A stretch of 5,819 nt of DNA from a virus (taxonomy: Duplodnaviria; Heunggongvirae; Uroviricota; Caudoviricetes), in the IMG/VR virus record IMGVR_UViG_2541047123_000027. One strand, given 5' to 3'. Positions 498-5,819 of the stretch are shown here, one piece after another; within the stretch, counting starts at the first letter, position 1, and every line of letters starts with the position of its first letter. Position numbers and translations under genes: made by a program. Under the pieces are notes generated by a model that did not search any database, was not told where the DNA came from, and saw only the letters and a list, made by a program, of their open reading frames with translations.

Positions 498-617
498 TCA
501 TGACGGAATAAAATTTCTGAAACTCTTCACATTTCCGGCAATTGCCTGTAGCCGCAATAATGACGCTGCATTACTTTTTTGATGCCTGAAAAATAACTCC
601 ATAACGTTAATCTTCAT
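498..617 (-). CDS. Hypothetical small protein (39 aa) in the I–J spacer; candidate moron ORF, coding status unproven
   Basis: ATG 617..615 to TGA 500..498 on the minus strand: MKINVMELFFRHQKSNAASLLRLQAIAGNVKSFRNFIPS. GGGAGA lies 5 nt upstream of the ATG, and the stop is followed at once by the 465..495 hairpin with U-tract. Local GC is clearly lower than the flanking tail genes. I recognise no homolog; too short for the supplied ORF track. Confidence 0.25.
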   Translation of the reverse strand: MKINVMELFFRHQKSNAASLLRLQAIAGNVKSFRNFIPS

Positions 618-753: not shown

Positions 754-1341
754 TCACCATAAGGCACCGGCACTCGGGTTCCCCTGGGCAATCATGTTAT
801 CCAGTGACGAAAAATACGTGTTCTGTTTACCGTTATCCGTCGCCCTGTACTCCGGTGTTTTTGCCTTCGGTGCCAGCATCTGGGCCACACCGCCCAGTAT
901 CATGCTGGCACCCAGTGAGAACAGCATCGTGGTGGCAGTCAGCCCTCCGGCACTCAGGGCTGCGCCCCACAACGCCATCGTTGCGCCGGCGGTGAAGAAA
1001 GAGCCCACGATGGCTGCTGCCCCCAGCACAATCTGCAGTCCGCCCTTTCCGGCTCCGGCCAGTCGCGGCACAATATGGATGACCGCCCCCTCACCCAGAG
1101 GTTCGTGAAGACGGGCGTACACCGCCTCCGGTGCCGTGTCCTCACCGCGAATACGTATCTGGTACCAGCCTTCGTTCATCTGACGGCGGAATCCCGGCAT
1201 CTGCATCGACAGGGCACGGATGGCTTCCGCTGCCGTGTTCACGTACAGGCTGAGGCGGCGGCCAAATCGTTGCAAATCCCCGTGAAGGCAGATGCGTGCC
1301 AGTGGCGGTGACGCCAGACAGAATGCGTTCGTCGTTGCCAT
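754..1341 (-). CDS. I: Tail assembly protein I (lambda gpI-like), 195-aa frame; C-terminus displaced by a +1 frameshift, with the homologous reading frame continuing to 663
   Basis: ORF-track protein MATTNAFCLASPPLARICLHGDLQRFGRRL...GAVIHIVPRLAGA...QIVLGAAAIVGSFFTAGATMALWGAA...FSLGASMILGGVAQMLAPKAKTP...DNGKQNTYFSSLDNMIAQGN matches lambda gpI (223 aa) and then ends abnormally as PSAGALW*. The frame one position over continues RVPVPYGEMLVGSRRISQDISTRDEGGDGKVVVIGRG* to a TGA at 665..663, matching the gpI C-terminus (…VLPVLYGEM…VVVIGR). Confidence 0.85.
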   Translation of the reverse strand: MATTNAFCLASPPLARICLHGDLQRFGRRLSLYVNTAAEAIRALSMQMPGFRRQMNEGWYQIRIRGEDTAPEAVYARLHEPLGEGAVIHIVPRLAGAGKGGLQIVLGAAAIVGSFFTAGATMALWGAALSAGGLTATTMLFSLGASMILGGVAQMLAPKAKTPEYRATDNGKQNTYFSSLDNMIAQGNPSAGALW

Positions 1342-1992: not shown

Positions 1993-2693
1993 TTACTGCG
2001 AAAGTTTATTGATGGAAAGGAAACCGCCAAAATTAGCCACCATGCCGCGCATCTCACACCCGCGCATGCACTTGCTGCATCTGTCCTTACGGATATCCGT
2101 GGTGGGGTTGTCGAACTCATCCGCCACCGCAGGACCGTTATACCCGCATTCATCTCCCCGGTAATCCCACATACAGGTATTCGCCAGCATGATGCGACCG
2201 GGAAACAGCGCTCCGTCCGTCTCCGTCGGTGTTGCCAGCACAAACGAGGCTGTCATGGCCGTCAGCTCTGACATCTGCTCCACCACCCAGCGGTCGCTCA
2301 AGCTCCTGCTCAGGGTCCGCCTCAGGATTGCCTGCCACAAAATTCACCGCATCCAAGAAAACGGGCATACACCCGGCGGCGGACCACCGTGGCCCCCACC
2401 AGGCTCTGCAGGTCCTCCGCCATTCCGGTGACCAGACCAAACAGATTCGACACCGTCAGCGACGGTCTGGCACTGCTGCCCTTCCCGTTCATCTCAAAGC
2501 CACTGCCGTCAATCGGGTATGCCTGATATTCACGCCCCTGCCAGGTCACCGGCACCCCTTTTTCATTCAGCTCATTGCAGAAAAAATACCGCTCACCGCC
2601 CTGCGCCGTCAGGTCGATTTCCCAGAGTACCACCCGCGGTGACTGCTCTGATTTAACCGACTCGTTCAGACTTTCTTCGTGAATATCCTGCAT
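1993..2693 (-). pseudogene. L: Minor tail protein L (lambda gpL-like) split across three reading frames by two +1 frameshifts about 60 nt apart
   Basis: Frame 1 (2693..2322): MQDIHEESLNESVKSEQSPRVVLWEIDLTAQGGERYFFCNE...VVRRRVYARFL then GCGEFCGRQS*. Frame 2 (part of 2440..2150) carries the next homologous block FLDAVNFVAGNPEADPEQE. Frame 3 (2340..1993) carries the remainder SDRWVVEQMSELTAMTASFVLATPTETDGALFPGRIMLANTCMWDYRGDECGY...CSKCMRGC...FGGFLSINKLSQ*. Concatenated, the three blocks reconstruct a ~232-aa gpL including the C-terminal Cys cluster. Shift points are near 2355..2362 (TTTT run) and 2296..2306. Confidence 0.8.
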
Positions 2694-3022
2694 CAGTTCA
2701 CCACCTGCTTAAACTCCGCGCTGAACTCAACGCGCAACATCCCGACCCGCGCAGACCACCCGGCACAGGTCACCTTTATCTGCCGGTATGCATAGGGTGG
2801 CTTCCACAAAAATGCCTTCCAGCCTCCGTGCTCTGCCAGGAATGCCTCCAGATGTCGGGCCTCCTCCCGGGTCACGGAAAGCGTCACACGGTATGTTTTC
2901 AGGTCAGCATTCAGCCCCGCCGCCATACGCTGCGAATACCCGTCACCAAAACGCACTTCACGCACCGATGGCTGCGAGTTCACCTCCATATCCGGCTTCA
3001 CTTTCCAGCGAAAGGTTTTCAT
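2693..3022 (-). CDS. M: Minor tail protein M (lambda gpM-like), 109 aa
   Basis: ORF-track protein MKTFRWKVKPDMEVNSQPSVREVRFGDGYSQRMAAGLNADLKTYRVTLSVTREEARHLEAFLAEHGGWKAFLWKPPYAYRQIKVTCAGWSARVGMLRVEFSAEFKQVVN has the same length and near-collinear identity to lambda gpM. Start overlaps the H stop (ATGA); stop overlaps the L start (TGATG). Confidence 0.93.
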   Translation of the reverse strand: MKTFRWKVKPDMEVNSQPSVREVRFGDGYSQRMAAGLNADLKTYRVTLSVTREEARHLEAFLAEHGGWKAFLWKPPYAYRQIKVTCAGWSARVGMLRVEFSAEFKQVVN

Positions 3023-5664
3023 CGCCTGCCTCCGGAAAAGACGCCGCCATCACGCATCTGCGCCTGAATCTCATCCTGCGCCCCCTTGCGGGCCATGTCA
3101 TACACCGCCTTCATCAGCTGCGGCCCCGCCTGTCCGTTGGAGCCGTCGTTCTGAATCACCACGTGATTGTTCTGATTAAAATTAATGCCTTCCGTCCGCC
3201 GCATCTGCGCCGGACTTCCGGCACCACCCACATAACCACCTTCCGCATAGCCGCGCATCAGACGGTAAAGATTCCCCACACCTATCCGGCTGGTTGCCTC
3301 TTTCGTGAAAACAAACTCCCCGCGGTGAACTATCCCCGCAGGCTCATATTTGCCGCCCGTCCCCGTAAATCCTCCGGTCGCGAAATGGAAGTTCGCCGCC
3401 GCAGCCTCAATGGCCGTCCCCGAGGAAGCAGATGCACCACCACCGAAAGCACCGCCAATGGCGCTGCCGATACTCCCGACTATCCCCACCATCGCCTGCT
3501 TCAGAAAAATCTCTGTCAGCATGGAGAGCACAGAACGGGTGAAACCACGCCAGTTCTGTTCGCTGCCGGTCAGCATCGCTGCCATATTCTGTGCAATACC
3601 GTCAAAGGTCTGCGTGGCCACGCTTTTAACCTGCGAAAAACTGTCCGTCGCACTTTCTGCCCACTCGCCCCAGCCGGACTTCAGACCGGCCATCCAGCTT
3701 CCACGAAGCTGCTCCTCCGCAGACCAGGTGTTCTTCAGTGCCGATGTGGCCTTCGCCAGCGCATCCGGATTATCACCGTACACGTCACGAAGGCGCTGCT
3801 CTTCCGACTCCCGCTGCGCCTGACGGTCGGTGAGGCCCCGCGCCTGGGCACTGATTGCCGCCTGCTTCGCGCCCTGCTGCTGCTCAAACCGCGCAGCCTG
3901 CTGTGCCAGCTCATTCAGCCGTTTCTGGTGTTCAACCTTGTCGCCCAGGTCAGCCAGCTGGCGTTTGTACTCCAGCGTCTCTTTCTCATGGGCCAGCAGG
4001 GATTTTTCCTGCCAGGATAACTGCCGTTTCGTGGCAGCCTCTTTCAGGACCGCATACTGACTTTCCGCCTTCCATAAATCACGGCGCTGCCGGCTAATTT
4101 TCTCATTCGCACCGCTGTGTTTTTCCAGCGTCCTGAGCTCAGCTTCAAGGGCAAGCAGAGCCTCTCTTGCCTGCTCCTCTTCCCTCTCCCCGGCAGAGCG
4201 CGTTTTCGGTGATGTATGCTTTTTACCTGTCAGCTCTTCAGCCAGACGGCTGACGGCTTCCTGCTGCCCTGGACCTTTGCTGACGCCTGTTGCACGCGAG
4301 CGGTTGATGTACCCCATTTCCCCCTGGCGTATACGCGCATCCCGTTCCGCAATGGATTTTCTCAGCGCCAGTTCATCGCGTTTTGTTTTCTCAATAAATA
4401 CGCGGTTCTCTTCTGCCAGTTCACCAAACAACGCACCAACGCCGGGCACATTCTTTGTCGTTTCCCAGGCTGACTGAATAAATTCAGCCAGCGCCAGATC
4501 CCCCTGCACAAGCAGCAGCTTCACCTGTTCAACGGTTCCTGCCACCACGTCAGTGATCAGACTGAGTGCCCCCAGTGTATGATCACCTATCCATGCCCAT
4601 GCGTCAGAAGTCCAGGTTTTAACATCGTCCCAGATTTTTTCCACCGGCGTGGCCGCTTTATCAAGTTGCTCCAGACGTGCATTCATGACATCCGCAAACA
4701 GGGACATCGCCTCCGTCACCGCAGCCTGTTTACCTTTCGTGCGCTCAAGCTCATCAATATGGCGTAACTGGGAAACGCTCAGGAAGTTATACTGCTGATT
4801 CAGGGAGGCCAGCGCCTTCACCGGATCTGCTGCAATCCCTTCAAAGGCTTTTTCCACCTTCCCGGCATCGTCCCCCACCGTCTGCAGCCATCTCTGAGAG
4901 GTTTCCCCCATGATCCGTAGCTGCCCGGCGGTATATTTCCCGCTTTCTGCCAGACGGGCCAGATTTTCTGCCGCCTGTCTGATACCACCACCGGCTTCAT
5001 CGCTGATCACCCCGGCCATTTTCCACAATTCTGCCGTTGTGGTGGCAGCCGCCCCTCCGGTCAGGGTCAGTGAACGCAATAAGGCCCGATCAGCCTGCTC
5101 TGCCTGCCAGGCGGCGGCAGCAAGCGCGGCCAGTACGGCAACCCCGCCACCTGCCGCCACACGGGCCACCGACATAAATCGTCCCAGCTCACCGGCATTC
5201 CGGGCATTTTCAGCCAGTGCATTTGCCGTATCTGACAGCGACTCCTCTGATGATTCAGAGGCATCCCTGATCCCGAGAAGTTCCTCCTTCAGCAGGGTAA
5301 GCAGGCTGAGCGGTCCACCGAATGAATCGCTGATCTGCCCCCCCTGCTGCAGCATGATAAGGAAGGGATTCTGACCACCGGCAAGCTGAGTGACAATATC
5401 CGTGAACTGTGCGGGCAGTGTGCGCATGGCAGCCTTATACTGTCCGACTGATATCCCGGCTTTTTGTGCAGCCAGCGCCTGTCGGCTCAGACTCTGCTCA
5501 GCAGCATCAGCCTGTTTTCTGAAAGACTGACTGACTTTCCCGGACATCAAATCAGCAAGCGCACTGGTTTCACCCAGCTCTTTTTTTACCCGCGCTGCCT
5601 CTTCAGAAAAACGGGCAGAATCCAGTGTCAGCACGGCTGTCAGATCGGCAAAATTACCTGCCAT
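3019..5664 (-). CDS. H: Tail tape measure protein H (lambda gpH-like), ~881 aa
   Basis: C-terminal ~400 aa are nearly collinear with lambda gpH (…ALLALEAELRTLEKHSGANEKISRQRRDLWKAESQYAVLKEAA…, …GIVGSIGSAIGGAFGGGASAS…FHFATGGFTGTGGKYEPAGIVHRGEFVFTKEATSRIGVGNLYRLMRGYA…MRDGGVFSGG). The N-terminus (…SLSRQALAAQKAGISVGQYKAAMRTLPAQFTD…LQQGGQ) is also lambda-like; the middle is divergent. Start set at ATG 5664..5662, which has AGGAGG 8 nt upstream; the track's 5673 start is a GTG that abuts that Shine-Dalgarno and is unlikely to be used. Confidence 0.95.
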   Translation of the reverse strand: MAGNFADLTAVLTLDSARFSEEAARVKKELGETSALADLMSGKVSQSFRKQADAAEQSLSRQALAAQKAGISVGQYKAAMRTLPAQFTDIVTQLAGGQNPFLIMLQQGGQISDSFGGPLSLLTLLKEELLGIRDASESSEESLSDTANALAENARNAGELGRFMSVARVAAGGGVAVLAALAAAAWQAEQADRALLRSLTLTGGAAATTTAELWKMAGVISDEAGGGIRQAAENLARLAESGKYTAGQLRIMGETSQRWLQTVGDDAGKVEKAFEGIAADPVKALASLNQQYNFLSVSQLRHIDELERTKGKQAAVTEAMSLFADVMNARLEQLDKAATPVEKIWDDVKTWTSDAWAWIGDHTLGALSLITDVVAGTVEQVKLLLVQGDLALAEFIQSAWETTKNVPGVGALFGELAEENRVFIEKTKRDELALRKSIAERDARIRQGEMGYINRSRATGVSKGPGQQEAVSRLAEELTGKKHTSPKTRSAGEREEEQAREALLALEAELRTLEKHSGANEKISRQRRDLWKAESQYAVLKEAATKRQLSWQEKSLLAHEKETLEYKRQLADLGDKVEHQKRLNELAQQAARFEQQQGAKQAAISAQARGLTDRQAQRESEEQRLRDVYGDNPDALAKATSALKNTWSAEEQLRGSWMAGLKSGWGEWAESATDSFSQVKSVATQTFDGIAQNMAAMLTGSEQNWRGFTRSVLSMLTEIFLKQAMVGIVGSIGSAIGGAFGGGASASSGTAIEAAAANFHFATGGFTGTGGKYEPAGIVHRGEFVFTKEATSRIGVGNLYRLMRGYAEGGYVGGAGSPAQMRRTEGINFNQNNHVVIQNDGSNGQAGPQLMKAVYDMARKGAQDEIQAQMRDGGVFSGGRR

Positions 5665-5707: not shown

Positions 5708-5819
5708 TCACAACCTCCTTCCCTCCTCCCCGAAACGGACTCCACCGGCGAGGCCCGCCGCCTTCTGCATCAGTACATCATTTTCGTCCGGCGTCTCCGC
5801 CTGTCCTTCCTCTGCCTCC
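5708..5819 (-). CDS. T: 3' end of the gene upstream of H, probably tail assembly chaperone T (C-terminal part of the G/GT product); gene start lies beyond the window end
   Basis: The only minus-strand frame open from the window edge gives …EAEEGQAETPDENDVLMQKAAGLAGGVRFGEEGRRL* with TGA at 5710..5708, 43 nt before the H start. Assigned mainly from position immediately upstream of the tape measure gene, as in lambda; 36 residues are too few for a firm sequence call. Confidence 0.5.
   Translation of the reverse strand, partial: EAEEGQAETPDENDVLMQKAAGLAGGVRFGEEGRRL

Follow-up and report, generated by a model that had tools for sequence, protein, structure and literature searches.

The homologue of the lambda minor tail protein L encoded in the 5,819-bp stretch of DNA analyzed here (the window) is interrupted by two single-base insertions, and a third insertion interrupts tail assembly gene I. 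The frameshifts in L are real in the deposited record, but they are probably (roughly four chances in five) not in the DNA of the bacterium and would represent indel errors in a low-quality repeat contig. The extra bases occupy defined positions, they are unique to the record of contig AVQR01000040.1, and their removal restores a known intact protein. Their origin would lie in sequencing or assembly: the tail-module repeat contig may have been assembled from mixed or thin read support and would have kept single-base insertion errors at three sites, of which two are in L and the third is in I. On this reading, L would itself be an ordinary intact gene of 232 codons, with a product that enters the tail-tip complex as in lambda.

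Source contig and gene layout

By exact-protein look-up, the window was found to be the whole of contig AVQR01000040.1 from the draft assembly GCA_000461935.2 (2013) of E. coli 09BKT076207. The assembly record is version 2, and the insertions are still in it. The contig contains a lambdoid tail module, T'-H-M-L-K-I-J', with all genes on the minus strand and in the lambda order: the end of T (about 5711-5819), the tape measure gene H (3019-5664/5673), M (2693-3022), L (1993-2693), K (1239-1982), I (663-1341), a 218-nt I-J spacer (445-662), and the first 141 to 148 codons of J (1-444). An identical copy of the K protein is found on about 1,000 contigs.

The contig begins within J and finishes within T and is thus a repeat-bounded piece of a multi-copy lambdoid tail module. 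In a collection of 15 billion proteins, the 881-aa tape measure protein H (3019-5664) was found on AVQR01000040.1 alone; its closest variant, at 96% identity, occurs on 55 contigs, and the differences are mostly in the C-terminal third. The I-J spacer contains a 39-aa ORF (498-617, minus strand) that is called as a gene in the deposited annotation and has terminator-like hairpins on either side (496-473 on the minus strand and 634-650 on the plus strand). The counterpart of this spacer in RM19259 carries no annotation, and an Rfam scan of the whole 5,819-nt window, spacer included, gave no matches. The spacer could hold a small moron or a regulatory RNA.

A search of the literature and of database records for strain 09BKT076207 yielded no publication and no sequencing platform. 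Strain 09BKT002497, which has a sibling name, is among the O157:H7 genomes listed in PMC7216683. This listing agrees with the best BLAST hits and does not prove the serotype of 09BKT076207.

Two extra bases in the L gene

The assignment of the gene at 1993..2693 (minus strand) to the gpL family, which had been proposed in the first-pass annotation, was borne out by a match to PF05100 (Phage_tail_L) and by the lambda order H-M-L-K-I-J. The gene is located between M and K, as in a lambda-type tail module, on the basis of the Pfam families of the called genes and the annotation of RM19259, strain 9000, and VT1-Sakai, in all of which the orthologous CDS is labeled "phage minor tail protein L." PF05100 matched the annotated N-terminal fragment over profile positions 1-90 (126 bits), the C-terminal fragment over positions 104-206 (131 bits), and the repaired protein over positions 1-206 in a single stretch (307 bits; E = 8e-92), the curated cut-off of the family being 25 bits. 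Every intact L relative retrieved is 699 nt long, whereas the window L is 701 nt.

Three-frame translation of the minus strand confirmed that the three conserved blocks of L lie in three different frames (codon starts equal to 2, 1, and 0 mod 3), as previously noted from the sequence, and this layout is far beyond chance. The blocks are distributed in this way because of two +1 insertions. Block A, comprising codons 1-113 (M1...VYARFL; 2355..2693, minus strand), is read in the frame equal to 2 mod 3 and covers PF05100 positions 1-90. Its frame is closed by a TGA at 2322..2324 (minus strand) after 10 out-of-frame codons (GCGEFCGRQS), which yields the annotated 123-aa N-terminal fragment ERB75646.1. 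Block B, comprising D114-E130 (DAVNFVAGNPEADPEQE), occupies 2302..2354 (minus strand), a span that reaches one base into each of the adjoining codons, 113 and Leu131, and it lies in the frame equal to 1 mod 3, which carries ...FLDAVNFVAGNPEADPEQE... in translation. This middle block had been described as 20 aa long; its homologous part is 17 aa, and the leading "FL" comes from shifted codons. Block C, comprising S132-Q232 and the stop (1993..2298, minus strand), covers PF05100 positions 104-206 in the frame equal to 0 mod 3, which carries ...SDRWVVEQMSEL... and includes the Cys cluster before ending at the stop codon (1993-1995). The cluster has five Cys residues in ...NTCMWDYRGDECGY...KDRCSKCMRGCEM... 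at the C-terminal end of the protein. The C-terminal Cys cluster of gpL-like proteins has been reported to bind an Fe-S cluster, which is a putative function here.

Alignment with intact L genes, which the first-pass annotation had proposed for placing the inserted bases, located them at 2355/2356 and 2300/2301. In comparison with the L genes of RM19259, strain 9000, and VT1-Sakai, the window has exactly two 1-nt insertions. Both are events of one type, T to TT within a Leu CTG codon that becomes CTTG, and all relatives have a single T at these positions. Insertion 1 (2355..2356, minus strand) affects Leu113 and changes TTTTC-TGGAT to TTTTCTTGGAT, with TT at window positions 2356/2355, either of which may be the extra base. 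Insertion 2 (2300..2301, minus strand) affects Leu131 and changes GAGC-TGAGC to GAGCTTGAGC, with TT at 2301/2300. The two shifts, previously estimated to be about 60 nt apart, are separated by 55 nt. The first of them had also been placed inside the TTTT run, but the extra T doubles the T of the next CTG codon, one C beyond the run. Insertion 2 generates a TTG with which the annotated C-terminal fragment of 102 aa (ERB75645.1/WP_021497230.1) starts; this TTG is located 1 nt past an AGGAG sequence that is found in all intact L genes too.

It is true of the deposited sequence that the two +1 shifts do not compensate for each other and that no single frame encodes full-length L. A continuous ORF of ~232 codons is present only once one T each is removed at 2355/2356 and 2300/2301, and the resulting ORF has 232 codons and is free of stops. 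Two other E. coli assemblies encode an intact L that matches the repaired protein residue for residue. But for the two extra bases, the gene is therefore a standard functional allele. The first-pass annotation had stated that its reading would fall if resequencing removed one base at each site and gave a continuous L frame of ~232 codons; such a frame was obtained here in silico, not by resequencing.

We also considered that the extra bases are real and that a functional L is still made, either through two programmed +1 frameshifts at CUU-G or from two separately translated pieces that assemble in the tail tip. The incoming frame indeed presents CUU followed by G at both sites, a Shine-Dalgarno-like AGGAG lies directly before site 2, and insertion 2 supplies a TTG start for the C-terminal fragment. 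However, a programmed site should be conserved, and the extra bases were found in none of more than 6,000 homologous copies: every other homologue lacks them and is read in a single frame. The features of a prfB-type site are also lacking. Site 1 (UUU CUU GGA) has no Shine-Dalgarno-like element, and at site 2 (CAG GAG CUU GAG) the AGGAG is at 0-nt spacing and is no dedicated stimulator, since every intact L gene has it equally. At neither site does the A site hold an in-frame stop or a strongly limiting codon (GGA and GAG, respectively), and the re-pairing from CUU to UUG would be poor. As for two separate pieces, the 1-nt spacing between AGGAG and TTG is known to be too short for efficient initiation, and a split L would miss residues 114-131. 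Lambda tail operons use one programmed frameshift (G-T, -1), which is located outside the window, and we know of no phage in which L is recoded. Programmed recoding of L was rejected on the basis of the lack of conservation and of defining site features, and we give almost no credence to a functional L being made from the gene as deposited.

Third insertion and distribution of the extra bases

Whole-window alignment revealed a third +1 insertion at 773..773 (minus strand) in tail assembly gene I, where the coding sequence CCGATG has become CCGAGTG. With this insertion, I (663-1341) is split into an ORF of 195 aa and a C-terminal one of 42 aa, and removal of the base at 773 gives an I protein of 226 aa. 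Relative to RM19259, the closest complete genome (98.7%), the window has 76 substitutions and only three indels over 5.8 kb, and all three are +1 in the window (at 773, about 2300, and about 2355).

None of the three changes was seen in any related genome or assembly examined. Both L insertions were absent from 83 of 83 IMG/VR L loci, and the I insertion was absent from 69 of 69 IMG/VR loci covering that part of I. Among complete E. coli genomes, for which the comparison covered the L sites only, the 133 nt spanning both sites were matched at about 6,340 places in 1,857 genomes, none of which had an L insertion; the subject span was always 131 of the 133 nt, and the top identity was 96.2%. Exact-pattern scans of IMG/VR, the GTDB species genomes, and the JGI metagenomes gave no match to insertion 1, a scan of IMG/VR gave none to the I insertion, and scans of IMG/VR and the GTDB species genomes gave no true match to insertion 2. 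Two GTDB matches to the insertion 2 pattern, in Atopobium and Nitriliruptor MAGs, were not L genes according to tblastn, and by our own estimate about two chance matches to this pattern were expected. The 123-aa N-terminal fragment was found on AVQR01000040.1 only, among 153 billion indexed gene positions.

Compared with a panel of 92 loci, the private changes of the window amount to three insertions and no substitutions in 5,193 positions. The natural L alleles of the panel show the opposite: they contain 185 polymorphic columns and no internal stops, and 89 of the 90 are 699 nt long. The 90th (L064; IMGVR_UViG_2534681940_000014, a 6,662-bp contig) lacks one nucleotide of a TTT run that lies 10 nt short of the L stop; this deletion alters only the last three residues and is the sole other indel among the 90 alleles.

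These counts also bear on whether the insertions could be real, in which case three independent +1 frameshifts would very recently have inactivated L (twice) and I in one lambdoid prophage of 09BKT076207, which would now be tail-defective and decaying. In the deposited sequence, L is indeed encoded only as fragments of 123 and 102 aa and I only as 162/195 aa, and the insertions persist in the second version of the assembly. Frameshifted genes are genuinely common in STEC prophages, which weighs against an error, and O157-type STEC are well known to carry defective prophages whose structural genes are frameshifted. Real insertions are also favored by the sequence at the three sites: 454 and Ion Torrent errors are commonest in long homopolymers, and no such run is present there. 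However, mutation-accumulation studies of E. coli have found roughly ten times as many substitutions as indels, and three private indels with zero private substitutions are the reverse of the spontaneous mutation spectrum. Moreover, the prophage would have been dead after the first hit and the later hits would have been neutral, so neutral substitutions should have built up alongside them, and three indels without a new substitution would make an unlikely history. Lesions due to decay might be common to related strains or copies, but those in L were shared with none of the IMG/VR loci and none of the places in complete genomes. In addition, L once repaired has no stops in its frame and encodes the very protein of an intact natural L, and all three changes are insertions within a short repeat contig. 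This pattern of lesions fits sequence error better than decay, and we regard recent inactivation of the prophage as unlikely.

With indel errors in the contig as the preferred explanation, the three events, all of them insertions, are what might be expected of an insertion-prone consensus. The location of the second shift outside a homopolymer had been taken to argue somewhat against sequencing error; this argument is not supported, and the evidence of a short, 5.8-kb repeat contig with private insertions only and with an intact protein recovered on repair points the other way. The conclusion that the prophage is tail-defective is correct insofar as it would lack L if the sequence were accurate, but that accuracy is doubtful. 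Overall, the observation made in the first-pass annotation is confirmed, and its interpretation is partly supported.

Repeat context and comparison with known systems

The anomalies form a local cluster. Of the L segments tested, only the 133 nt that include the two insertions, with their top match of 96.2%, had no near-identical match, whereas each of the 133-nt control segments flanking the middle block was matched at 99% identity or more, one in 353 records and the other in 309 (top identities, 99.2% to 100%). In a greedy exact-match tiling of the window, the 55-nt middle block took three tiles and formed the densest cluster of breakpoints. Mosaic tiling was set aside as decisive evidence, natural mosaicism being too common in this tail-module family. 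The Block B (2302-2354) haplotype CCT GAG GCG GAC CCT has no exact counterpart in the 92-locus panel or in complete genomes, and no complete E. coli genome came within 3 mismatches (plus two gaps) of the 133 nt over Block B. Column by column, the Block B haplotype looks like a mixture of two common ones.

Complete genomes hold a median of 2 copies of the tail module, with up to 12 to 14 places per genome, and STEC genomes have up to 12 near-identical copies each. As a multi-copy element, the module is a classic assembly repeat. Dozens of E. coli drafts have contig ends in the same L region, where partial L proteins end with ...FVAGNPEA (29 contigs) or start with DPEQEL... (69 contigs). Such contig ends within L probably mark a recurrent branch point in the assembly graph between prophage paralogs.

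One way in which a repeat of this kind could give rise to extra bases is a collapsed-paralog consensus in which both alleles of a SNP are written side by side (CTG/CTT, CTG/TTG, and ATG/GTG). This idea fits all three sites but was rejected as an account of them for being unspecific. The alternative alleles do exist: CTT is found at Leu113 in 4 loci, TTG at Leu131 in 9 loci, and GTG in place of the I Met codon (ATG) in 6 loci, as counted in a panel that was partly enlarged after the fact. In a specificity control, however, 18.5% to 19% of all possible single-base insertions in L fitted the idea equally well. The CTT haplotype was present at an identity of at least 99% in 28 records, those listed including non-O157 STEC, and the TTG haplotype was present at the same level in 116 records, those listed being mostly single-copy. 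The two haplotypes thus belong to different strain types, and their co-residence in one genome is hypothetical. Given this background fit and the distribution of the haplotypes among strain types, the side-by-side writing of alleles is retained as no more than a possibility.

Should the insertions be real, the contig would represent one more defective lambdoid prophage in a STEC-type strain, which is a well-described situation. In practice, the case serves as a warning that indel errors can occur in the short repeat contigs of draft assemblies; they spawn spurious fragment proteins in databases (here, ERB75645/ERB75646 and WP_021497230/WP_021497231) and invite false conclusions about prophage competence.

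With respect to lambda gpL and its STEC orthologs (e.g., VT1-Sakai L, BAB19566.1), the window has the same H-M-L-K-I-J order, a protein of 232 aa (when repaired), and the Cys cluster, and its L shares 96% to 98% nucleotide identity with annotated L genes. Unlike members of the lambda gpL family, the deposited L has two extra T residues and no full-length frame and is annotated as two fragments. The window resembles the CUU-UGA site of prfB (RF2) in having CUU at both shift points and AGGAG upstream of site 2, but it differs in its unconserved extra bases, in the lack of an in-frame stop where the shift would occur, and in the wrong spacing of the Shine-Dalgarno-like element. A single-base frameshift in a lambdoid tail gene of a STEC-like strain is also reminiscent of the "defective prophage pool" of O157:H7 Sakai. 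In contrast to decay of the Sakai type, the lesions are private to one draft contig, comprise three insertions with no private substitutions, and can be repaired in silico to a known intact allele. Finally, the window can be compared with indel and collapsed-repeat errors in drafts of multi-prophage genomes. Although its sites are not the long homopolymers typical of such errors, it shares with them the short, repeat-edged contig, the multi-copy module, the clustered anomalies, the restriction of private differences to indels, and the breakage of other drafts at the same place.
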